In this document: one piece after another, positions 26,756-39,586 of the stretch
Numbering within the stretch: the stretch's first letter is position 1
Layout of the letters: every line of letters starts with the position of its first letter
DNA from: Candidatus Zixiibacteriota bacterium
Lineage (GTDB): Bacteria > Zixibacteria > MSB-5A5 > GN15 > FEB-12
Direction of reading: 5' to 3'
Assembly: GCA_041742355.1 (NCBI GenBank)
Contig: JBGSIV010000196.1
Location: forward strand, 1 to 39,586
Length of the DNA: 39,586 nt
Translations under genes and position numbers: made by a program
The notes under the pieces: generated by a model
What the model was told of the DNA's origin: nothing
Databases searched by the model: none
The model's input: only the letters and a program-made list of their open reading frames with translations

Positions 26756-28621
26756 TCAGCCGGTCTTTACGTCCCACTCCAGCTCGCGTAACTTCTTGCG
26801 GACCTCGGAGATAAAGGGATAATTCGGATGCCGCTCCAGCAGCGTCCGGTAAATTGCTTTGCCTTCCTCGCGGCGTTCCGGGTCAGAAACGTAAGCGTCC
26901 GCCTTGATTTTTAGCCCGAACGGGACATAGTACGATTCCGGGAATCGGGCAGCCAGCCGGTCGATGTACCCGAGAGCCGCCGTGGAATCCTGCAGATCCA
27001 TACACATGCCGGCGAGCCGATACAGCGCGACATCGGCCAGTGAGGAATCGTCCGCGCCCGCAATCTGCTCCAGCCGCACCCGGCTCGAGTCATACCGCCG
27101 CTGCTCGGCAAACAGCAACGCTGTCGAGTAGTCGTGCAGGAGCGGTTGGTTGCCGCCCGCCTCGCCGATCACCAACATCAACTGCAGGGCATCGTTGACA
27201 TAGAACCCGCGGGGGTAATCGACCATAAGTCGGTTAAAGGCCGCCTGCGCCGAGTCGAACCGCTTGTCGTAAAAATCGATCTTGGCCAGCTTGAAGATCA
27301 TCTCCTCGGCGATATCCTCGTTGACCTGCCGGGCCTGAATGTCCCGCAGCGAGGATCGGGCCCGATCCAGTTCACCGATCTGGATATACGCATCGGGCCG
27401 CGCCAGCAGCGCCCGCAGATACCCGAGTCCGCCGGCGTAGGTCGCCGTGACGGAATCAAACATCACCAGCGCCTTTCGCGGGTCACCGCGCAGATCGAGG
27501 TAGATCAGGCCGATCCGGTAGCCGGCTTCGGCCTTGTCCTGCGGACGGGGGTAGGTTGCGATGATCGTGTCGTACACGCTGATCGCGGAGTCGAGCTGTC
27601 CGAGGTGAGTCAGGGCATCAGCGTATAGAAACCGTGCCTCCGCCAGCAGGGGAGAGGCGCCGTAACGCTTGACAATCTCGCTGCCGACCACGGTTGCCTG
27701 GCGATACAACCCGCGCTCGTTGCAGGTTCGCATGAAACTCAGCAGCACGGTTCCGTTGGTTCCGCCCAGCGAATCGCGCAGGAGGGTGAAGTGCATCGCC
27801 TGGTCCATGTCACCCGCCTTGAGGAAGTGACTGGCCAGAATCTGAGTTGCTCGGGCGGCGGTGGAATCGGTCGTGTGGTTCCGCAGCGCCTTAATGACGT
27901 CCTTCGAGGATTCCTGGAACTCCAACAGCAGGAAGAGCTTGTTCTCGGCCTCGATACCGGTGTGCGTGGTATCGGCCATCGCGGTGTAGTATTCCTCGAC
28001 CGCCTTGAGGTAGTCGCGGCGGGATTCATGGATTTCCCCCGCTTCCTTGGCGAAGAGTCCCGGCGACGACAGGTTCGTTCGCAGCCGCGTGATCATGGCC
28101 AGCGCCTGGTCGGTCAGACCGACCGCCTGCATACTGCGCACGATCTGGCCGTACAGCCCAGCGTTGTTGTCCCGAACGAGGCTGTACGCTGTCTCGTACT
28201 CCTTGAGTGCGCTTTCGGTGTTCCCCTGCCGCGCGAGCGATTCCGCCAGGAACGCGTGGAGGATGTGGCTGTTGGGCGAGATTTCCATCATGCGTCGGAT
28301 AAGCAGTTCTGATTTCGCGGGCTGGCCCATCTGATCGTAGCAGGTCCGCAGGAGGTTCATGACCACCTGGTCGTCCGGGCGGCGCTGGTAGACGCTTTCG
28401 AGCAGGCCGGCGGCGCCTTCGAAATTGTTCTGCTGCATCATCTGCCGCACGGTGTTGAGCAGACGCTGGTCGGCCGCCTGCTGTTCGGCCGGGTTGACCA
28501 TCTGCAGACCGGCGGGCGGTTTCTTCGCTTCGACCGGCTGCTCGTCGGCCCGGATAGGTCCGGCCAGCACGAAGGCCGCGAGGAGGGCAACGGCTATTGA
28601 CGCCGAACGAATCTGCGTCAC
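26756..28621 (-). CDS. Exported tetratricopeptide-repeat protein
   Basis: Signal peptide and repeated TPR-like helices (e.g. ARFLYADAL...AISVYDTIIATYP); start overlaps the upstream stop. Confidence 0.8.
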   Translation of the reverse strand: MTQIRSASIAVALLAAFVLAGPIRADEQPVEAKKPPAGLQMVNPAEQQAADQRLLNTVRQMMQQNNFEGAAGLLESVYQRRPDDQVVMNLLRTCYDQMGQPAKSELLIRRMMEISPNSHILHAFLAESLARQGNTESALKEYETAYSLVRDNNAGLYGQIVRSMQAVGLTDQALAMITRLRTNLSSPGLFAKEAGEIHESRRDYLKAVEEYYTAMADTTHTGIEAENKLFLLLEFQESSKDVIKALRNHTTDSTAARATQILASHFLKAGDMDQAMHFTLLRDSLGGTNGTVLLSFMRTCNERGLYRQATVVGSEIVKRYGASPLLAEARFLYADALTHLGQLDSAISVYDTIIATYPRPQDKAEAGYRIGLIYLDLRGDPRKALVMFDSVTATYAGGLGYLRALLARPDAYIQIGELDRARSSLRDIQARQVNEDIAEEMIFKLAKIDFYDKRFDSAQAAFNRLMVDYPRGFYVNDALQLMLVIGEAGGNQPLLHDYSTALLFAEQRRYDSSRVRLEQIAGADDSSLADVALYRLAGMCMDLQDSTAALGYIDRLAARFPESYYVPFGLKIKADAYVSDPERREEGKAIYRTLLERHPNYPFISEVRKKLRELEWDVKTG

Positions 28622-31600
28622 GGGCGACCCTCCGGCTTCGGCGACGATTCCACCTGGAGCAGCGCCTTGAAGTACGCCTTGATTTGCTCTTCGTACTGGC
28701 GGGGGTACTGCTCGCCGAGGTACTTGCGCAGACGATCTTCGAAATGCCCCTGATCGGAGAGCAGGTCGGCCGGAAGGCCCGGCGGCACTTCGTACACCTG
28801 TTCGCCGGCCGAGGTGGCCTTGCGTTGTTCGGCCAGGTCCTTGCGCTGGAGTGAGCGCGAGGCCTGCAGCATGCGGGAGTAGACCCGCAGCTGCCGTTCG
28901 GCCAGCTCGGGGCCGACCTCGCCTTCGGCCAGCGCTTCTTCGATCTCCTGCATTTCGCTGGAGATGTCTTTCAGCCGCCCGAGCACCTGGCGGGAATCGC
29001 CGAACTCATTGGCCAATTCCTCCATCGACTTGCGGATCATCCCCTGTTCGCCGGCCAGCCGCTGCAGCGATTCGCGCATCTGCGGGTTCTGGCTGCCGGG
29101 ATTAAACGAGGGGTTGTTGCACATTCCCTGCGACTTCTGATTCAGTTGATTCTGCTTCTGCGACAGCGACTCCATCATGGACATGTTCTTGTCGCATGCG
29201 CCTCCGTTCTCGCACTGCTTCTGCTGGTTCATCGACTCCATCAGCTTCAGGGAGGCCTGGTTGAGTTTCACCATCGCGTCGCGCTGGGCGCGAACCGCTT
29301 CGGCGCCGCGCTTCTCGGCAAATCCCTGGGTCGCCATATTCATCTGCGCCGTCGCCTCGTTGACCATCTGCGTCAATTCCGAAGCGACGAAAGGCGATTC
29401 CTTGCCCAACTCCGCGATCCGGTTCTTCAATCCGGCCGAAGCATCGACCAGATCCTTCTGCGACTGGGCCAGCTCCTTGAGCACGTCCGACTGCGCCGCC
29501 ATCTCGGCGGCCTTCTTCAGAAGATCTTCCTGCGACCGCGACAGGTAGTTGGCGTCGTCGACGGCCAGCCGCATTTCCTTGCGGAGAGCCTCGTTCTGCT
29601 GGCCGGACATGGCGCCGAACTGCTGTTGCATGGCGGTGAGCATCTGGGCGAGTTTCGACGAAGCCTGCTTGCCCTGGTTTGAGGCCTCCTGCTTCTGCTC
29701 TTGCTGCATCGCCCCGGCCATGTTCTGCATGTTCTGACCGGCGTCGCTCTTCTCCACCGACTCGGCAAATCTCTGGGCCGCTTCCTCCTGGTTCATCTGC
29801 GCCTCTTCCATCAGCTTGCGCAGCTCTTCCACTTGCTTCTGCAACTCCTCGAGGTCTTCTTTCAGCCCCTGTTCTTTCTCGGCCATCGACGGCAGCTTGT
29901 CGGCGGAGCTGCTGTCGGTTTTCTGATTGACCTGGTTCTGCTGCTCCAGGAGCTGTTCAACCTGCCGCATCATGGCCTGCATCTTTTGTTGCACCTGCAT
30001 CTGCTTCAGAAGGGCCAGTGTGCGATCGAGCCGCTGCAGCATTTCCTGCTGGGTGAGCTGAAGTTGCTCCATCGCTTTCTGGATCTCGTTGCGATCCATC
30101 TTCTGCAGTGCCTCCATGAGCTTGCGCTGTGCTTCCTTCAGTTCGGGGGTCGCCACCTCCTCGAAGAGCTTCTGGATCTGCTGCATCTTCTCGATGATCT
30201 CGCGGCTCATCTGGGCATGTTCGCCGAGCTTATCGACGGACTTGTCCATCTCCTCCGCCATCTTTTCGATGTTCTTCACCAGCTCTTCGTTCTTTTCGGA
30301 CAGCGCTTGGAGCTGCTTCTGCTGTTCCCAGTCCGCCTTGGTCTCGTCGCGGTTCTGTGCCTTGAGCTTCCGGGCCATATTCTTGAACTGCTCGGAGATT
30401 TCCTTCCCCTGCTTCAAGAGCGTCTCCGTATTGTCTACCCGCCTGGAGCTTTCTCCCTCGGCTTCCGCGATGATCTCCTCCAGCGACGGGATTCTCGCCA
30501 CATACTGCCGCGACCGGGTGACCTTCGGCCCTGATATGGCGTCGTTGTCGGCCACTTCAAAATAGTAGACGGTGTAATCGCCGGGATACATGTTCAGCTT
30601 GTCCATGTCCCAGTTGAACGAGACCTCTCCTTCGGTTTTGATCCGATCGGAGAAGTGCAGGACGGCGACGTGCTCCTCGCCGGGGCGACCCTGGGAGACG
30701 ATCGAGTACTTCAGCACGAGCGATGAGAACCCGAAATCGTCGAACACCCGCACCTTTAAGGGCAGGATCATCTCTTCGCTCAGGTTGACATTGACGCCGG
30801 GGAAGAGGACGTCAATCGACGGATACTCATCGGGCACCGCCGTGATGTGGTACTGAATCGGATCGGGATTCTCCTCGCCGAGGTGATCGACCACGCGGAT
30901 GTAATACCCTGACGACTGATCGACCCGCAGCGATACTTCGCCCTGCTTGCCGTTCACTTCGAGGGGAGTCCGGCTGGAGTCATCGAACACCAGTTCCCCC
31001 TGTTTGACCGGCAGGTTGGTCTCCACTGCCATGCTTACACGCGAGCCTACAATGGCCGAGAAGGACCCATTGTTCTCGTCAATCACACTCGGCACCATGC
31101 CGGTGTAGTCCGGGTAGAAGATCGACAGCTTGATGCCATTCACCCGCGGGCGATCGACCACATCGACTTTCTGGACTTCAGTCTTGATCCGGCCCGCTTC
31201 GACATAGTAGTCGAACGACCGATTGATCTGACGCAGGGTGAGCGCTGCATTGACCGAATCCCCGTTGTCCATTTGCGCCCGGCGGGCGGACTTCAGGTTC
31301 ACCTCGGTCTGCTGCCAGTTGCCGTCGACCAGGCGGTGGTGGATGACAGCTTTCTCCGGGAGGCGTTCGCCGAAAATCGCGGCTCCGATCTCGATATCGT
31401 TGTATTTCACCCACTCAGTTGTTCCGGGGAACGGCACCACCTTGTAAGCCAGGGGCGGGGCGATTTCGGTGGTCGGATTGGAGTAGACGAGGAACGCGTA
31501 GCTGAATATGCCCGGAAGGAGCGCGACCAGGGCTACTGCGAGCACCGCGGCCACCGCGAAGTAACGCCCGGTACGGAGCACCGGATAGTAGGAGAGGGCT

Positions 31601-32025
31601 TCGTTGAAATTAACAGCGCCGGCCTGCCGGAGGGCCTGGAGTTCGGTGGCGTGAATGAGATCGGCCGAATACCGTTCGGCGTCCTTCATGTGGGCGAACT
31701 GGATAGCGGCAATGAGGCGTCCCTTGAGCGCCGGGTTCTTCTCCTCGAGCGTTACCGCCACTCCTTCGACGGACCCGGCAAAGAGGTGGGCCAGGGCATA
31801 GCGCCCGAAGAGGAATACGGTCACTCCCCCGACGAGCACGAGCAGGCTGATTTTCAACCACACCGGCAGGACCATGACATTGGCCAGGAGCGACAGCCCG
31901 ATCGCCGCGGCCGTGACCGCCGCGATAGTCAGGAGCAGTCCGGAGGCAAACAGCACCAGGCGCTGACGGAACAGCACCCCATTGAGTCTGGCGAGCAATT
32001 CCCGGCTTGAACTCATCTCGGTCAT
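28618..32025 (-). CDS. DUF4175-like large membrane-anchored coiled-coil protein
   Basis: N-terminal TMs, 'PDYTG', 'DDFGFS', 'VADNDAISGPK' motifs, long Q/E/M-rich coiled coil, C-terminal 'YEEQIKAYFKAL'. Confidence 0.75.
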   Translation of the reverse strand: MTEMSSSRELLARLNGVLFRQRLVLFASGLLLTIAAVTAAAIGLSLLANVMVLPVWLKISLLVLVGGVTVFLFGRYALAHLFAGSVEGVAVTLEEKNPALKGRLIAAIQFAHMKDAERYSADLIHATELQALRQAGAVNFNEALSYYPVLRTGRYFAVAAVLAVALVALLPGIFSYAFLVYSNPTTEIAPPLAYKVVPFPGTTEWVKYNDIEIGAAIFGERLPEKAVIHHRLVDGNWQQTEVNLKSARRAQMDNGDSVNAALTLRQINRSFDYYVEAGRIKTEVQKVDVVDRPRVNGIKLSIFYPDYTGMVPSVIDENNGSFSAIVGSRVSMAVETNLPVKQGELVFDDSSRTPLEVNGKQGEVSLRVDQSSGYYIRVVDHLGEENPDPIQYHITAVPDEYPSIDVLFPGVNVNLSEEMILPLKVRVFDDFGFSSLVLKYSIVSQGRPGEEHVAVLHFSDRIKTEGEVSFNWDMDKLNMYPGDYTVYYFEVADNDAISGPKVTRSRQYVARIPSLEEIIAEAEGESSRRVDNTETLLKQGKEISEQFKNMARKLKAQNRDETKADWEQQKQLQALSEKNEELVKNIEKMAEEMDKSVDKLGEHAQMSREIIEKMQQIQKLFEEVATPELKEAQRKLMEALQKMDRNEIQKAMEQLQLTQQEMLQRLDRTLALLKQMQVQQKMQAMMRQVEQLLEQQNQVNQKTDSSSADKLPSMAEKEQGLKEDLEELQKQVEELRKLMEEAQMNQEEAAQRFAESVEKSDAGQNMQNMAGAMQQEQKQEASNQGKQASSKLAQMLTAMQQQFGAMSGQQNEALRKEMRLAVDDANYLSRSQEDLLKKAAEMAAQSDVLKELAQSQKDLVDASAGLKNRIAELGKESPFVASELTQMVNEATAQMNMATQGFAEKRGAEAVRAQRDAMVKLNQASLKLMESMNQQKQCENGGACDKNMSMMESLSQKQNQLNQKSQGMCNNPSFNPGSQNPQMRESLQRLAGEQGMIRKSMEELANEFGDSRQVLGRLKDISSEMQEIEEALAEGEVGPELAERQLRVYSRMLQASRSLQRKDLAEQRKATSAGEQVYEVPPGLPADLLSDQGHFEDRLRKYLGEQYPRQYEEQIKAYFKALLQVESSPKPEGRP

Positions 32026-32160: not shown

Positions 32161-32919
32161 TCAGTATAACAGGGCGTACGCGAGAATGTTCACTCCCATC
32201 TGGAACGCCTTCTCCCGCAGATCGGACGGATCATTGTGCACCTGCGGGTCCTCCCAGCCGTCGCCGATGTCCGACTCGACCAGGAAGTACAATGCAACTC
32301 GGCCGTCAATCACAATCGCCCAGCCGCGCGGCGCCTTGGCATCGTGCTCGTGGACTTTCGGCGGACCATTCGGAAAATCGTAGAAACAATGGTACAGCGG
32401 GTGGTCGAAGGGCACCTGGACGAGTTCCCGCTCCGGAAACAGGTCGGCCACTTCTTTCCTGAATGTTGCTTCCATGCCATAAGAATCGTTGACGAAGAGG
32501 AAACCGCCTGCCTGCAGGTAGCGGCGAAGGCGCTCCCGCTCCTCGGGGTTGAACTTGATCACTCCGTGACCGGTTGCGAACAGGAACGGGTAGCGAAACA
32601 GATCCGGATCGCTTATCGTCACGACATGTTCGATCGTGTCTATCGGGAAGTCGGTGTTCTCCCGGACGTAGTCGAGGAAATTGGGGATGGCCGAGCCCCC
32701 CCAGTACCAGTCGCCGCCGCCGGAGTAGTGCAGGCGGGCTACTTTGAGAGCCGAGGGATTGGCGTTCCCTCTCTGGTTAGGCACGGCTTGGGGGAGACGC
32801 TGCCGGGAGAGGTCGACTGTCCGCTGGGCTGACACCGGCCCCGGGAAAAGCATCGCCTGCCCGAAAACCACTGCCGCCACAAGCGCGGCACTTCCTATTG
32901 TCCGGAGAAACAACCTCAT
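32161..32919 (-). CDS. DUF4159 domain protein
   Basis: ARLHYSGGGDWY, YPFLFATGHG, LRRYLQAGGFL, DHPLYH, DIGDGWED, AFQMGVNI motifs; N-terminal signal. Start trimmed to MRLFL. Confidence 0.85.
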   Translation of the reverse strand: MRLFLRTIGSAALVAAVVFGQAMLFPGPVSAQRTVDLSRQRLPQAVPNQRGNANPSALKVARLHYSGGGDWYWGGSAIPNFLDYVRENTDFPIDTIEHVVTISDPDLFRYPFLFATGHGVIKFNPEERERLRRYLQAGGFLFVNDSYGMEATFRKEVADLFPERELVQVPFDHPLYHCFYDFPNGPPKVHEHDAKAPRGWAIVIDGRVALYFLVESDIGDGWEDPQVHNDPSDLREKAFQMGVNILAYALLY

Positions 32920-33129
32920 ACACGTAATATACAGGTGAAGTCCTTCTTTCGACGCAGAAAAAGTGAGATCCTGACGCCGAATGTCCGGGGGGCACATCCG
33001 GAACCCGATCACGTGTCTCCGGGTTACGCATATACTCACCTTACGCCATGATCGACCCCTTCCGCCCATCATCCGCATCCGGGGCAGGGCGCTTCGTATC
33101 CGAAAACAATCCAGGTCCGGAGGACAGAA

Positions 33130-33567
33130 ATGAGCGGTTTACTCGATCAACTGAAAAAGGAGCACCGTCAGGTGCAGTCTATGCTCGAGGAGATGACACG
33201 GGAATCAGGCACGTCGGCTACCCGCCGGAAAGAGCTTCTGAGCGAATTCGAGCGGGAGATTCAGGGGCACATGGCCGGCGAGGAGCGCGTCTTCTACCCT
33301 CTTCTGCAGAAGACCGGCGACGCCAAGTCCCGCGCGCTGGAGTCCGAGGAAGAGCACAGCGTCACCAAGGTCCTCCTCGGACAGCTCCGTCAGACCTCGC
33401 CCGACTCCGAACGCTGGCTGGCCAAGGCCAACGTGCTCAAGGAGATGATCAACCACCACATCGAGGAAGAAGAAAACGAGCTGTTCAAATCGGCCCAGAA
33501 GATCCTCAGCAAGGAGGATATGGAGCAGATGCTGACCGAGTACCAGCAGGCCAAGGGCCGGTCCTGA
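33130..33567 (+). CDS. Hemerythrin HHE cation-binding domain protein
   Basis: LKKEH, HMAGEERVFYP, EEEH, HHIEEEE motifs; GGAGG RBS. Confidence 0.9.
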   Translation: MSGLLDQLKKEHRQVQSMLEEMTRESGTSATRRKELLSEFEREIQGHMAGEERVFYPLLQKTGDAKSRALESEEEHSVTKVLLGQLRQTSPDSERWLAKANVLKEMINHHIEEEENELFKSAQKILSKEDMEQMLTEYQQAKGRS

Positions 33568-33618: not shown

Positions 33619-34077
33619 TTACGGCGCAGCGTGAATCGGGATCGACCCGGAATCCGAGAATTCTCCACGCTCGAACGACTCCCAATCGCTCAACAGGGCA
33701 CGCCAGAACCGATCGGGAGAAATCACGCGCAGCCCGAGGCCCGGGTTGGCCGAGACTAATCCCCAGAACTCGCCATGGACAAACAGCAGCGGCGGAGAAG
33801 CCGATAGCGGGTTTCGCGCGCTCAGCGGGCTGTCGGACGATCCGTACGGTCCGTGATAGTTCAGGATGCTGGTTTCACTCTGCCCGCTCCCGAACCGGCC
33901 GACTGCATTGAGCAGAGATTCGGAGTGTTCCGGGCGGGCGACGCGGCCGAGGAATCGGCCGTCGGCCGCCACGAGGAACGACTGTTTCTCGTCAATACGC
34001 CGTCCCATTTCCACCTCGTCCTCGAGGTCGGCCAAGAGCTGATGAAGAATTTCCCGCGTGGGGTCTGCTTTTTCCAT
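33619..34077 (-). CDS. Hypothetical protein with tandem S-x-x-N-x-x-G-x-Y/F-G-S motif
   Basis: GGAGG RBS; DGRFLG..SLLNAVGRFGS..SETSILNYHGPYGS..SPLSARNP..PP. Confidence 0.7.
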   Translation of the reverse strand: MEKADPTREILHQLLADLEDEVEMGRRIDEKQSFLVAADGRFLGRVARPEHSESLLNAVGRFGSGQSETSILNYHGPYGSSDSPLSARNPLSASPPLLFVHGEFWGLVSANPGLGLRVISPDRFWRALLSDWESFERGEFSDSGSIPIHAAP

Positions 34078-34092
34078 GATGTATACCTCCGC

Positions 34093-34449
34093 CTACAGTG
34101 TCCGCAGCAGGCGTCTGATCTCCGCGACCGCTTCGTCGGCCAGCAGCAGTTCAATGAGGGCCGGGGCGATCGCGAGGGCTATGTTCTTGCGACGAATATC
34201 CCGAATCGCTCGCAGGGGCCAGTGCAGGAGCGCAGTCGTTATCACCGGCGGTATCGACCAGCCGTATCGGCCATCAACTATCGCGGCGATGAGGCAGGCA
34301 ATACCGGCCCCGAAAAGGAGTGCCACGAACGTGATATATGTCCACAGCTCTCTCCGGTTGGATTGCAGCACGGCGTCAATACGAGATAACGTACGGTCTA
34401 CCCGGTCCCGGGTGAGCACTGGCAGGTGCTTGTAAGTTTGAACATCCAT
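34093..34449 (-). CDS. Hypothetical two-TM membrane protein
   Basis: ORF from MDVQTY (118 aa) with two hydrophobic helices; ends 15 nt before the next start. Confidence 0.6.
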   Translation of the reverse strand: MDVQTYKHLPVLTRDRVDRTLSRIDAVLQSNRRELWTYITFVALLFGAGIACLIAAIVDGRYGWSIPPVITTALLHWPLRAIRDIRRKNIALAIAPALIELLLADEAVAEIRRLLRTL

Positions 34450-34583
34450 AGATTTGCTCAATGTCAGTATGGACGACACGACTAGTATCGGTCGCGCCCG
34501 ACACCGAATTGAGATTTTTCTCCAAGCCAATATCTCCGAGCACATTGGGCGCTGCTGTGAGGTAGATCCGCCGCGGCACGTAC

Positions 34584-35683: not shown

Positions 35684-37405
35684 TTATATGCTCAAGGCTT
35701 TGTAGGCCTTGCGGATGTCGAAGATCTGCTTGGTGATGACGTACGCCGTGTACAGCGAGAACGACACCCCGAGGAACAACGTGACCGCGAACCCCTTGAT
35801 CGGGCCGGACCCGAGCGCAAAGAGCGCCGCTGCGGTGATCAGGGTTGTGACGTGCGAGTCAAAAATCGCCACGAAGGCGCGGTCGTACCCAGCTTCGATC
35901 GCGGCGCGAATCGTCTTCCCGGTGCGCAGTTCCTCTCGGATGCGCTCAAAAATCAGGATGTTCGCGTCGACCGAAATACCGATCGTCAGAATAATGCCCG
36001 CGATACCCGGCATCGACAGGGTGAACCCGAGGCCGCCCATGAAGGCCAGGAGAAAGAAGATGTTGAAAAGCATACCGACATCGGCGATCACGCCGGAAAT
36101 GCGGTAGTACACTGCCATGTAGAGGATGACCAGGAGCAGGCCGACCAGCGAGGCGTAGAACCCCTTGCGGATCGAGTCGGCGCCGAGCGAGGCTCCCACG
36201 ACGTTCTTCTCAATGATCTGCACCGGGGCCGGCAGGGCGCCGGCCTTCAGGACGATCTCGAGGTTGCGGGCGTCTTCCATCGTCGCCGCGCCACCCATCG
36301 TGATCTGTCCGTTCTGGCGGATCTTGCTGTTGATCATCGGGGCCGATTCGACCCGGTCGTCCAGTACGATAGCCAGCGGCTTGTTGATATTTGCGCCCGT
36401 CAGCTGGGCAAACCGGGCCGCGCCGTCACCCGACAACGTGAAGTCGACCGAGAATTCGCCGTACTGCCCCTGCCCGAGGCGGATGTTTTCGAGGAACTTG
36501 CCGAGGAACTGCACCTTGCGTTTGAGCAGGTACAGCGTGTAGACCTCGCGCGCCTCACGGACTTCCGCCCGCGTCGACCAGGCCCATTGTACGTCGATCG
36601 GCATCAGGTTCTGCACCTCCGGCAGCGTCAGCCACCGGTCTATCAGTTCCTTGTCCGTCTTTTGCACGTAGAACCCCGGCCAGGACTCGTTCGTCTGCTG
36701 CGAGTAGAGGGCGGTCTGCAACCGCGAAGACAGCGGCTTATCGTTGGTGACATCCCCCGCGTTTTCGTCGAACCCGAAAGGATCGTCGCCGGTATCGGCG
36801 GCGCCGGTGTCGGTGCCCATCAGTTCCGAGAGCACGTCCGATTCACCGGTGTCAGAGGCGGGCGGTGTCGCCTGCGGTTCCGGCACGGTCTGGCCGGAGG
36901 TGCCGGCGCGCATCATTTCGTAGGCATGGACGACTGAGTCCGTCTTCGCCATCAGCAGCTGGGCGTTGTCCATGCCCTCGAGCAGCTTGAATTCGAGCAG
37001 CGCTGTCTGGCCGATGAGCTCTTCAGCCCGGTTGGCGTCGGTATAACCCGGGAGGTCGACCACGATCCGGTCTTCGCCCTGTTTGAGAATCGAGGGCTCA
37101 GCTACGCCAAGACCGTCGACACGGTTGCGGATAATGGCGATAGCGCGTTCCACCGCGCCATCCCGCTCGGTCGGGGCCAACGCCGTCATATCGACACGGA
37201 GCACGACGTGAATGCCGCCCTGCAAATCCAGACCCAGCCGAATGGCATCCTGCTGCAACTTCAGCAGCTCACCCGGCTTCTCCTCCTGCATCCGGGCTTT
37301 CTCGGCATCACTCATGGTCCAGAGCCGGAATGTGTCCCAGAATGCGACTACCGCCAGGATCACCAGAGCGATCGTGAGGTAGATACGCCAGTTGCTTTTG
37401 GACAT
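35684..37405 (-). CDS. secD: Protein translocase subunit SecD
   Basis: LGLDLQGG, RNRVDGLGVAEP, LAIVLD...SAP.I, LKAGALPAP, VGASLG, DANILIFERIREE motifs. Confidence 0.97.
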   Translation of the reverse strand: MSKSNWRIYLTIALVILAVVAFWDTFRLWTMSDAEKARMQEEKPGELLKLQQDAIRLGLDLQGGIHVVLRVDMTALAPTERDGAVERAIAIIRNRVDGLGVAEPSILKQGEDRIVVDLPGYTDANRAEELIGQTALLEFKLLEGMDNAQLLMAKTDSVVHAYEMMRAGTSGQTVPEPQATPPASDTGESDVLSELMGTDTGAADTGDDPFGFDENAGDVTNDKPLSSRLQTALYSQQTNESWPGFYVQKTDKELIDRWLTLPEVQNLMPIDVQWAWSTRAEVREAREVYTLYLLKRKVQFLGKFLENIRLGQGQYGEFSVDFTLSGDGAARFAQLTGANINKPLAIVLDDRVESAPMINSKIRQNGQITMGGAATMEDARNLEIVLKAGALPAPVQIIEKNVVGASLGADSIRKGFYASLVGLLLVILYMAVYYRISGVIADVGMLFNIFFLLAFMGGLGFTLSMPGIAGIILTIGISVDANILIFERIREELRTGKTIRAAIEAGYDRAFVAIFDSHVTTLITAAALFALGSGPIKGFAVTLFLGVSFSLYTAYVITKQIFDIRKAYKALSI

Positions 37406-37518
37406 ACTGTCTTCCTTTCAACAGTTTGCTGTCTATACGATTAATGATGGTGTCGTTCTGCGGCGCACCAGTATCGGGCGCGCAATAAACAGAATCTTGA
37501 AAAGCGGGGGCGGCTCGG

Positions 37519-37953
37519 TCAGCCGAGGCCGGAGGGTTTGGCGCCAACCAGCGTGAACTGGCGGCCAACACGAGGATCGACCGCAAAGGCTGAGGTCAGC
37601 AGCGGTCGGGAGGCAATCGTAACGGTAACCCGACGACAGGATTTTAGCGACGGCTGGTCATCCAGTACGAGCCGCTTGTCGCTGTTGTCGGTTTTGATAA
37701 TCAGCGGAAGAATCTGACTGGTCGAACTGGCCGGGAGCGGACGCCCGTTCGGCGTCATGCTCTGCTGCGGATCATCGGACGAAGGAGGAATGTCGCATTC
37801 GTAACCGGTCGCCAACGGCTCCGGCGAAGTCAATGCGATCCAACTGGTCCCGGCAACAAACAGCCCGGCCATCGCCACTGTCAACAGCAGCAACACCGCC
37901 AGGCCCGTCTGGGCCCCCTGCACGACCTGTTCGATCCGTACCCGTTTCGTCAT
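37519..37953 (-). CDS. secDF upstream ORF: single N-terminal hydrophobic segment; candidate translation-arrest (secretion monitor) peptide
   Basis: 144 aa; hydrophobic stretch GLAVLLLLTVAMAGLFVAGTSWIAL, Ser/Pro/Asp-rich spacer, C-terminal RQFTLVGAKPSGLG; same strand as secD, 113 nt upstream, directly after a promoter. Confidence 0.65.
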   Translation of the reverse strand: MTKRVRIEQVVQGAQTGLAVLLLLTVAMAGLFVAGTSWIALTSPEPLATGYECDIPPSSDDPQQSMTPNGRPLPASSTSQILPLIIKTDNSDKRLVLDDQPSLKSCRRVTVTIASRPLLTSAFAVDPRVGRQFTLVGAKPSGLG

Positions 37954-37963
37954 AGGATGCGCG

Positions 37964-37991
37964 AATATACCATAACCGGGGTCGAAGTCAA
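37964..37991 (-). promoter_or_regulatory. Sigma-70-type promoter for the uORF-secD-secF operon
   Basis: TTGACT-N16-TATATT with a TG extension; the uORF ATG is only 10 nt downstream of the -10. Confidence 0.65.
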
Positions 37992-38108
37992 CGCCATTTT
38001 TCCCTGCCCCGACAGGCCGTTGACACCTGCCGGAAACCGACTTACCTTAGTATCGGTAACTACTTGGCTTGGCCTAACCGCCCCCGAGGCGACAAAAGGA
38101 AGACCGCA

Positions 38109-39586
38109 ATGCGTCGAACTACTCTCGGAGCAACTTTCGGAACTGCAATACTTTGCAGCTTCCTGTCCATACTCTGCCCAGCCGGCAGCGCCGGTGCTGC
38201 CGAAACCTACGTGCTGGAGAACGGGATGACCGTGATTCTCAAGGAGCAGCACGGCTCGCCGATGGTTTCCAGCATTGTCTTTGTACGCTCAGGAAGCAAA
38301 TATGAGTCCCGTTACGAGAATGGTATTACCCATTTCCTCGAGCACCTGCTTTTCGATGGTACCGCGACGTTGACTCGGGAGGAGCTCGATGCCTCCATCC
38401 GTGACCTCGGCGGCTACATCAATGCGTTCACGCGCAAAGAGCTGACGGCCTACCTCGTTCTCCTGCCAAAGCAGTACATCGACTATGGCATGACGGTGCA
38501 AACGGATATGCTCTTCAATTCGGTTTTTCCCGAGCAGGAGCTGGCCAAAGAGCGCAAGGTGGTTATCGAGGAGATGAAGCGGGATGCCGATGCCGCCGGC
38601 GCTGCGGCCGACGAATTCTTCACCAGCCGCGCCTACGCCGAAACCGGCTACGAACGTCCCGTCCTCGGTTACCAGGCCTTTATCGAGAATATCCCGCGCG
38701 AGGCGATCATCGACTACTGGCGCCGCTTCTACATTCCCCGGAATATGACCCTGCTGGTTATCGGCGATTTTGAATCGGAAGCAATGAAGAAGACTGTCGC
38801 CGGCATATTTGGCCCGCTCAAGAATCCGGATCTCCCGATCGACCACTCGGGCGCGACCACTGTCCCGCCGGAGAGCGTGAAAGATGTGTCGTCGCCCGTC
38901 GTGTCTCCCTCAACGCAGGAGCGCCACGACACGGTCGCTAATGTCACCTCGACTTACGTTAACTTCTCCGTTGCCGCCCCGCACTACGCGCAGGACGACT
39001 ACTACGCTATGGATATCCTCGCGCAGTACCTCGGTACCGACGGCGTCTCGCCTCTCCTGACCGCTCTCAAGGGTGGCGCCGAGCCGCTCGCGACCGAGGT
39101 ATCGGTCGGTCTCACGCCGTACGAAGAGTTCTCGCGCCTTGAAATTTCCGTTGTCACCGAGCAGGCCGAGAACCGCGACGCCATCATCTCCACTGTCATG
39201 GACCAGTTGGGTGCGATGGCTGCACACAACCCGAACCCGCGGTCGATCGAGGGCATAAAGACGGGTGTCCGCACCAACGACATCTACAACGAGGCGAAAC
39301 TCCATTACTACGGTTTCATGATTTCCCCTTACATTATGTCCGCGGGCTGGGACTTTGTGCAGACGTACGCCGACCGTATCGCCGCCACTACGTGGACCGA
39401 TTGCGTTGCCGCCGCAGGGAAGTGGCTGACCGATCCCCGGTACATCGCCACAGTCGTGCGACCGGTGGGGGAGAGCGGTCTACCGCCGTATGTGCCCACC
39501 GGCATGTTGGCCGAGGAGGTTCAGGCTCATTTTGCTGCCGCTTCATTCCCGGTGTACGACCTTGCCGCGGTGCCCAAAGTCGCCTA
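38109..39586 (+). CDS. Exported M16 family (pitrilysin-like) zinc peptidase; 3' end runs off the window
   Basis: Not in the ORF track; manual translation MRRTTLGATFGTAILC...AETYVLENGMTVIL...RSGSKYE..ENGITHFLEHLLFDGT (HxxEH), INAFT, ERKVVIEE; AAAGGAAG RBS. Confidence 0.92.
   Translation, partial: MRRTTLGATFGTAILCSFLSILCPAGSAGAAETYVLENGMTVILKEQHGSPMVSSIVFVRSGSKYESRYENGITHFLEHLLFDGTATLTREELDASIRDLGGYINAFTRKELTAYLVLLPKQYIDYGMTVQTDMLFNSVFPEQELAKERKVVIEEMKRDADAAGAAADEFFTSRAYAETGYERPVLGYQAFIENIPREAIIDYWRRFYIPRNMTLLVIGDFESEAMKKTVAGIFGPLKNPDLPIDHSGATTVPPESVKDVSSPVVSPSTQERHDTVANVTSTYVNFSVAAPHYAQDDYYAMDILAQYLGTDGVSPLLTALKGGAEPLATEVSVGLTPYEEFSRLEISVVTEQAENRDAIISTVMDQLGAMAAHNPNPRSIEGIKTGVRTNDIYNEAKLHYYGFMISPYIMSAGWDFVQTYADRIAATTWTDCVAAAGKWLTDPRYIATVVRPVGESGLPPYVPTGMLAEEVQAHFAAASFPVYDLAAVPKVA

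Follow-up and report, generated by a model that had tools for sequence, protein, structure and literature searches.

What is the role of a small gene that, throughout a clade of bacteria, stands between the secDF promoter and secD? The question is raised by a 144-amino-acid (aa) open reading frame (ORF) in the window examined here, which is the whole 39,586-nucleotide (nt) contig JBGSIV010000196.1 of a Candidatus Zixiibacteriota bacterium (assembly GCA_041742355.1). The encoded protein ends in DPRVGRQFTLVGAKPSGLG-stop or, given at greater length, in ...VGRQFTLVGAKPSGLG-stop, and a 113-nt gap separates its stop codon from the start of secD (position 37405). A sequence-only reading had placed this ORF first after a promoter and 113 nt before secD, which we find to be correct (ORF at 37953–37519, promoter at 37991–37964), and had interpreted it as a monitor of protein export. 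This Sec-monitor interpretation is supported by the comparisons presented below, according to which the ORF is a leader gene found throughout the clade and shows every comparative hallmark of an arrest peptide that monitors Sec. We consider it likely that the ORF encodes a new cis-acting peptide of this kind for secDF, and that it would stall the ribosome at or next to its own stop codon.

Among secD loci from relatives, 69 have upstream sequence (L023 has no upstream DNA, and L031 is a repeat of the window). The ORF precedes secD in 44 of the 69, including every locus from three sister families of the Zixibacteria order GN15, designated f1 (35/35, this genome included), f4 (5/5), and f2 (4/4), and none from the fourth family, f3 (0/5), or from other orders (0/20). 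A family profile built from 43 of these loci (L007 omitted) was searched over 285 genomes of the phylum and matched 137 of the 145 genomes of the three families (103/107 in f1, 4/5 in f2, and 30/33 in f4) and 0/14 genomes of f3. Partial matches were obtained in two of 125 genomes from other orders (E 0.002–0.007), and neither the motif described below nor secD was present in the regions fetched for these two. Further motif-bearing loci from the phylum search are positioned directly before secD in 18/18 cases. A scan with the peptide pattern [GS]RQFTLVGA yielded 26 confirmed loci among 42 matching stretches in genomes and 23 among 34 in metagenomes, and secD is located just downstream in 26/26 and 23/23, respectively; 8 of these genome loci and 9 of these metagenome loci repeat members of the secD-derived set. 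Of the 197,748 stop codons in the six frames of the whole genome, three, including that of this ORF, complete the pattern L-x-G-x-[KRH]-P-x-G-x-x-stop. These results confirm that the 144-aa ORF is real and is conserved beyond chance. The assignment of the clade to Zixibacteria, candidate division GN15, is taken from named records, and several depositors labeled such bins otherwise. For example, records L073–L098 are titled Ignavibacteriales or Acidoferrum, and these depositor labels are probably wrong, as the SecD proteins are 65–77% identical to that of the window, like those of records titled Zixibacteria or GN15.

The arrangement of the locus with and without the ORF indicates how the gene arose. 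In a scan of positions 37300–38200, TTGACT-16-TATATT with a TG extension is the sole sigma-70-like site (0.3 expected from shuffled sequences). A promoter motif lies within 130 nt of secD in 23/25 loci that lack the ORF versus 0/44 loci that carry it; in these ORF-less relatives, the promoter is 27–96 nt before secD with no intervening gene (23/25). When the ORF is present, the promoter lies 9–22 nt upstream of the assigned ATG in 39/43 loci, where starts were assigned by hand and partly from promoter position, and the gap from ORF to secD is 71 to 260 nt (median 94). A gene for an M16 peptidase is found upstream in loci of both types, at a distance from secD of ~640–790 nt with the ORF versus 128–341 nt without it. 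These spacings argue that the ORF was inserted into the secD leader, between an old promoter and secD. In a SecD phylogeny computed quickly and including 13 outgroup rows (L144, which lacks the anchor motif, was omitted), f1, f2, and f4 form one clade (Shimodaira–Hasegawa-like approximate likelihood ratio test support of 100) that is sister to f3, and this topology fits a single gain of the ORF on one SecD branch. That branch is long (0.49 changes per column) and exceeds the neighboring internal branches except that of f2. The ORF had also been described as occupying the usual place of yajC, which is not borne out: there is no yajC remnant, yajC is located on another contig of the assembly (C308), the YajC profile PF02699 does not match the ORF, and most ORF-less relatives have no gene at this place. 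An origin from a SecD duplicate was ruled out by lack of similarity.

Because the ATG is 10 nt downstream of the promoter and is not preceded by a Shine-Dalgarno (SD) sequence, the message should be nearly leaderless, with a leader of perhaps 4–5 nt. Some loci depart from this plan. In L007 (G013), the promoter is intact and a TAA interrupts the n-region of the frame; starting at a later ATG, the protein would have 132 aa and only a shortened hydrophobic segment. This may be an assembly error, a lost signal, or a new start. The f2 loci L030, L053, L054, and L057 have a longer gap to secD (166–260 nt), tails of the form LLG[HQL]KPSGVS or LVGQKPSGVS, and intergenic folding z-scores of −0.9 to −4.9; in three of these four, the ORF is longer (173–200 aa) and the promoter is 80–89 nt before the ATG. 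Genome G185 carries two copies of the ORF (L124 and L125), which share 74% identity over 540 nt and are each followed by a secD start; this may reflect a duplication or a mixed bin. Of the second secD, the match nearest the ORF spans residues 1–55 only.

The proteins of this family are 137–200 aa in length (median 146), and their conservation is concentrated at the C terminus. The same profile gave 259 representatives at 50% clustering, and homolog counts below (n = 150 or 149) refer to those listed among the 259. Mean column identity is 0.24–0.33 over residues 1–128 versus 0.82 over residues 129–144, where the family consensus is LGRQFTLVGA(K/R)PSGT(S/G)-stop. Thus, the check proposed from sequence alone gave a positive result: FTLxGAKPSG is retained in the ORFs upstream of secD, and their middle parts diverge. 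The ending P-x-G-x-x is present in 150/150 homologs, and individual positions (numbered from the C terminus) are nearly fixed: T-11 in 145, L-10 in 149, G-8 in 149, P-5 in 150, S-4 in 144, G-3 in 150, and T-2 in 145. The window's own ending, PSGLG, is atypical, being found at 1 of 93 loci where PSGTS accounts for 72. L(-10), P(-5), and G(-3) are invariant in 44/44 loci while all synonymous codons are used, and the proportion of nonsynonymous differences is below that of synonymous differences in all three regions of the ORF (10/10 pairs, bar one region without any change). Selection therefore acts on the peptide.

Explanations of the motif at the level of RNA or stop-codon usage were also considered. 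An in-ORF hairpin pairing the Leu-Val codons with the Thr-Ser codons was rejected, as the third-position pair is not enriched (Watson–Crick in 35/62, p 0.10; dereplicated, 30/56, p 0.13). Predicted folding of native ORF ends is no stronger than that of synonymously resampled ones (mean z −0.15), and no RNA covariation was detected in the tail (permutation p 0.10–0.19). In the window, a predicted hairpin at 37531–37511 (minus strand; eight pairs and one bulge) spans the stop codon with UGA in its loop; the atypical Leu143 codon is part of its stem, and the hairpin was not seen as conserved in relatives. Stop codons at the 93 loci are TAA (44), TAG (40), and TGA (9), from which no release-factor preference can be concluded because TGA is just as scarce at the end of secD in these loci (5/43). 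Fusion to SecD by readthrough or frameshifting is ruled out by the gap lengths, which fall in all three frames.

Known stalling motifs were sought in the homologs. RAPP, RGPP, RAGP, RAP, RGP, and the general form [RQH][AGD][PGS][PG] occur in 0/150, and the published motifs uA_LPPP, NAP/NSP-stop, DGMK/LudP, and CliM (KYxIW) each occur in 0/150 within the last 30 residues. As judged by these pattern searches, the conserved tail lies outside the published stalling-motif classes checked. The suggestion that GAKP(SG) forms a separate motif class agrees with the lack of RAPP-type motifs, and needs revision in that the motif is longer, extending through S-G-T to the stop codon.

This extension bears on where a ribosome would stall. 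The segment V-G-A-K-P can be aligned with I-R-A-G-P of SecM, and this family shares with Escherichia coli SecM a proline at the fifth position from the end. One can thus envision an arrest peptide in the SecM register, with the P site holding K/R139 and the A site Pro140, and with secD translation controlled by lineage-specific hairpins; in L006, L028, and L066, base pairing between the tract behind the stop codon and the SD region is predicted. This variant belongs to the same class of explanation as the one we favor and is counted apart from it. We regard it as very unlikely: a near-invariant glycine (149/150) stands where RAGP/RAPP has its arginine, the SD pairing is not conserved across loci, and the S, G, and T that follow the proline are kept at 96–100%, which a proline-stalled ribosome would not select. 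Because such a ribosome could read neither the conserved S-G-T nor the position of the stop codon, a stall at or beside the stop codon is favored over one at the proline.

The remainder of the protein has the layout expected of an export monitor. The sequence-only reading rightly described a single N-terminal hydrophobic segment, which covers residues 19–33 of the window protein (mean Kyte-Doolittle hydropathy 2.7). A hydrophobic core (≥1.8 on the same scale) is present in 142/149 homologs, a net positive n-region in 136/149, and an [AVGS]-x-A site after the core in 126/149 (by our own heuristic rather than SignalP), while a heuristic scan of the 149 found no lipobox or twin-arginine translocation (Tat) motif. 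The distance from the hydrophobic core to the C terminus is held at a median of 118 residues (5–95% range, 112–125), which lies within the long-spacer range of Sec monitors, given medians of 133 for VemP and 54 for MifM (PMC10987492, accessible portion). The ORF can also be compared with the four criteria used in the screen of Fujiwara et al. 2024, all of which describe it: a small upstream ORF (uORF) without assigned function on the same strand directly upstream of a sec or yidC gene; an N-terminal signal or transmembrane segment, as judged here by hydropathy, charge, A-x-A heuristics, and a modeled helix; conservation of the C-terminal sequence across homologs; and a spacer of more than 30 residues.

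The spacer had been called low-complexity and rich in Ser, Pro, and Asp. Enrichment in Ser and Pro is correct (over 82 residues, S 13%, P 13%, and D 8.5%), and the spacer is not featureless, since certain residues are kept at fixed distances from the C terminus. Counted without gaps in the 150 homologs, these are M-79 (102), P-73 (98), A-67 (92), and R-51 (98). Three f2 proteins are 30–55 residues longer, yet their Met keeps a position between -78 and -81. An internal start at this Met66 was considered and is disfavored: loci without the ATG mostly have non-start codons there, for example GTC, ATT, or CTG, and GTG once. Met66 is taken as a residue rather than a second start because no conserved SD precedes it; one called protein, P0147 (79 aa), begins at this position.

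The conserved Met, together with scattered Cys residues, could bind a metal or an oxidant, and the copper-responsive arrest uORFs CruR and CutF are of similar size. These features would suit a leader whose stalling responds to a small molecule, or to some envelope stress distinct from SecDF pulling. Such a sensor is extremely unlikely: no conserved CXXC or His cluster was found in the 150 homologs, Cys in the spacer averages 1.4 with 31/150 homologs lacking any Cys after residue 37, and the downstream gene is the pulling motor itself. Under the same low estimate we place a nonregulatory ORF that merely accommodates an RNA or DNA element, which is opposed by the lack of an Rfam match in 36800–38300 and by the coding-type selection along the ORF.

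A further possibility is that the protein acts after synthesis, as a small exported or membrane-anchored accessory of the SecDF/holotranslocon, or else of an envelope protease, that docks into a partner through its free C-terminal peptide; it would not stall ribosomes and would be cotranscribed for stoichiometry. C-terminal binding motifs have a fixed exact C-terminal end, as does this family, and the signal-like N terminus, the operon position, the coincidence of the ORF gain with the long SecD stem branch, and the lack of an SD-unmasking structure (see below) would all be accounted for. Other findings fit poorly. The AlphaFold model has a confident helix at residues 3–41 and coil elsewhere (predicted template modeling score 0.36), which suggests that there is no globular fold, and identity of homologs to the window protein over the whole chain is 14–52%. 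The search for an unrelated folded family returned none: for 43 members, Pfam and NCBIfam yielded nothing beyond single weak matches and no family, PDB sequences gave no match to the family profile under E 1, and the ESM Atlas queried with one homolog returned nothing usable. Moreover, the ORF invariably opens the operon, with the promoter before it and secD after it, and is never elsewhere in confirmed loci; fixed C-terminal distances over 80 coil residues fit ribosome-to-channel geometry better than a flexible tether; and YajC is present separately. We judge an accessory protein to be clearly unlikely.

For the arrest peptide that we favor, the following sequence of events is proposed. Given its position, the ORF would begin every secDF transcript made from the conserved promoter. 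The signal-like segment would bring the translating ribosome to SecYEG, and the last ~16 residues, lying within the exit tunnel, would stall this ribosome. At the stall, the P site would most likely hold the final residue and the A site the stop codon. With ~118 residues between signal and stall site, the chain could reach through the channel, such that pulling by SecDF could release the stall. M-79, P-73, and R-51 might tune this release, by analogy only with Arg-85 of VemP. When export is weak, the ribosome would stay in place and secDF expression would rise. A metatranscriptome library contains one 246-nt contig that covers 37695–37937 inside the ORF at ~95% identity, with 11 differences in 10 codons and 2 residue changes; it fits the coding frame and is weak as expression evidence, as the library may include DNA.

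Several observations weigh against arrest. A conserved free C terminus is also expected of a binding or sorting motif, and the loci are related by descent, so that the counts overstate their independence. The cost of opening the secD start was computed with a 30-nt ribosome footprint whose end was set 9 nt upstream of the stop codon, at the stop codon itself, or 10 nt downstream of it. Over 75 loci, the footprint lowered this cost by a median of 0.0 kcal/mol, and its effect reached at least 1.5 kcal/mol in only 3, 3, and 1 of the 75, respectively. The E. coli secM control gave 0.9, 3.7, and 4.1 kcal/mol, where 0.9 belongs to the placement of the true stall, so this control was only partly passed. 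Likewise, when the SD region is paired with the ORF end or with the post-stop tract, cognate duplexes do not exceed swapped or shuffled ones in strength in 81 dereplicated loci (mean rank 0.48–0.58; z below −1.64 in 2–5 of 81; secM control z −2.3). Thus, a stem-loop that masks the secD SD and is opened by a stalled ribosome is not predicted for the family, and the translational control of secD by such a hairpin that the sequence-only reading implied finds no backing in these calculations.

If arrest does occur, three routes to secD can be considered. The stalled ribosome may block a Rho site behind the stop codon, as in tnaC, a route to which we give serious but tentative weight, short of calling it probable. 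A possible but somewhat doubtful route is that the SD is freed by RNA refolding, of an indirect kind or one that varies among lineages. Protection of the mRNA or tethering to the translocon is unlikely. No intrinsic terminator was found in the ORF–secD gap of the window, and a U-rich tail follows the best hairpin of the gap in 15/75 loci.

The Rho route is suggested by base composition. The 30 nt behind the stop codon contain 12 C and 6 G in the window, and family means are 19.2 pyrimidines and a C minus G of 4.5. C exceeds G in this interval at 63/75 loci and at 17/18 held-out loci, as compared with 7/23 plain secD leaders, 11/24 secF ends, and, for 521 gaps of similar size in the genome, 47%. 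The skew is positive at 87/93 junctions versus 42% of the 521 controls, among which the window locus falls at the 87th–93rd percentile. In the Rho version of the model, a ribosome released by force would uncover the post-stop Rho site, and SecDF pulling would thereby shut off transcription of its own genes; the system would have arisen once, when a near-leaderless gene was inserted into the secD leader. Taken as a whole, a monitor whose tail TLVGA[KR]PSGT[SG]-stop represents a new arrest chemistry, prevents termination of its own translation, and gates secDF transcription through a Rho site is rather unlikely, and we treat the Rho model as a lead and not as a finding.

The points that count against Rho are as follows. 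E. coli secM, an SD-unmasking system, also has more C than G behind its stop codon (6 C, 0 G). The tract is predicted to be unpaired at 0.41–0.46, versus 0.43–0.48 for its flanks, and the intergenic folding z has a median of −0.8. The median gap of 94 nt compares with 162 for cruR-bfrG and 220 for tnaC-tnaA, and skew inside the ORF may partly reflect Ser, Thr, and Pro codons. Finally, rho was matched in 38/41 genomes (38/40 relatives) and was not found in this assembly, which is 93.8% complete; this is probably an assembly gap.

Comparison with published systems, made from the accessible portions of the cited sources, places the family near VemP, which is encoded upstream of secDF2 in Vibrio. 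Both precede secD-secF and combine a signal, a long spacer, and a non-RAPP C-terminal motif (PMC7793623, PMC10987492). VemP also has a conserved spacer residue outside the tunnel, Arg-85, on which PpiD-SecDF-dependent release relies, comparable with M-79, P-73, and R-51 here (PMC7793623). In contrast, VemP undergoes elongation arrest and acts on an SD stem-loop, whereas the present family is conserved to the stop codon with no such stem predicted; VemP is also from another phylum, and the family profile matches neither Pfam, NCBIfam, nor (under E 1) PDB entries. More generally, the stalled ribosome frees the SD from a stem-loop in SecM, MifM, and VemP. The NAP, NSP, and DG[ME]K groups are likewise secDF or secA uORFs with a localization signal and a compact C-terminal motif of ~15 residues, and stop-in-A-site arrest is shown or likely for these three -stop groups; however, they belong to Bacteroidota and Bacillota, and their motifs are missing from the homologs. 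SecM, ApdA/ApdP, ApcA, and the RQH family share the layout and the x-A-x-P spacing, and differ from this family, in which RAGP/RAPP motifs are lacking and residues after the proline are conserved. By layout the ORF family resembles VemP or LudP, and according to the searches made it is a member of no named family tested. Each of the non-RAPP motifs solved to date (MifM, VemP, CliM, and LudP) adopts its own conformation in the ribosome, as stated in the accessible part of the LudP preprint.

On the output side, TnaC, SpeFL, and CruR are uORFs that gate Rho termination by stalling (PMC8450073, PMC12360218, PMC9426467). The first 30 nt behind the tnaC stop codon contain 11 C, 5 G, and 19 pyrimidines, and a stall at the stop codon is possible for our family as well; CruR is a 145-aa uORF that uses Rho. 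These systems differ in that they sense tryptophan, ornithine, and copper and control metabolic or transport genes. Within the accessible text on uORF-Rho cases, no Sec gene is among the genes controlled, and the ORF–secD gap is shorter than theirs.

The strings GAKPSG, KPSGTS, and FTLVGA gave no match in the literature searched, whose coverage mostly excludes subscription journals. No Zixibacteria secDF arrest peptide was found in that literature, as represented by the accessible portions of, for example, PMC13183943, PMC7897499, PMC10502375, and bioRxiv 2025.02.05.636593. The genome list of PMC10987492 includes at least 17 Zixibacteria, 7 of them of order GN15; its main text, as accessible, contains no Zixibacteria, KPSG, or GAKP, and its readable supplements contain no KPSGT, RPSGTS, or KPSGVS, while its secDF-uORF table (probably MOESM6) may list unnamed members.

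Export-monitoring arrest peptides are a known class, to which this family would add a candidate motif from a phylum where we found no such published peptide. Arrest motifs of this kind serve as force sensors. It comes with 259 sequence clusters that mark the residues that should be critical, with a predicted stall site, and with spacer residues at fixed distance, and the sister family f3 offers a natural ORF-less control. If only arrest is true, the family is a solid addition to a growing list of arrest peptides. If the Rho output is true as well, a VemP-type input would be joined to a TnaC-type output, a pairing not found among the published systems compared, and this would widen the ways in which export feeds back on gene expression. 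Coordinates of the features at this locus are collected in Table 1.

Table 1. Features of the ORF–secDF locus, given as positions in the window
Feature	Position	Strand	Remarks
uORF, 144 aa, ATG to TGA	37519..37953	minus	Near-leaderless start, no SD
Sigma-70-type promoter, TTGACT-16-TATATT	37964..37991	minus	Drives secD directly in ORF-less relatives
Hydrophobic core, residues 19–33, after basic n-region; putative N-terminal signal peptide or signal anchor	37855..37899	minus	
Spacer element: Met66 (-79), Pro72 (-73), Arg94 (-51), at fixed C-terminal distances	37672..37758	minus	
Conserved C-terminal motif, residues 129–144, and stop codon; candidate arrest sequence	37519..37569	minus	
C-rich, pyrimidine-rich tract directly 3′ of stop codon; candidate Rho loading site	37489..37518	minus	
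secD SD GAAAGGAAG, preceded by A/T-rich stretch	37411..37419	minus	From sequence; relatives have comparable purine runs
secD, 573 aa, presumed regulated gene	35684..37405	minus	Pfam SecD_1st, SecDF_P1_head, SecD_SecF_C
secF, 308 aa	34742..35668	minus	Pfam SecD_SecF_C
Divergent M16 peptidase gene, runs off window; synteny marker predating ORF	38109..39586	plus	Pfam

Other genes near secDF were noted in passing. A hemerythrin-domain gene (33130–33567, plus strand) is located between secF and a DUF4159-DUF4175 pair (32161–33078 and 28618–32025), and the same interval includes two ORFs without a significant Pfam family (33619–34077 and 34093–34545, both minus strand). Within SecD itself, residues ~170–220 (36740–36900) form a long acidic low-complexity stretch of the periplasmic P1 region that is poorly conserved in relatives.

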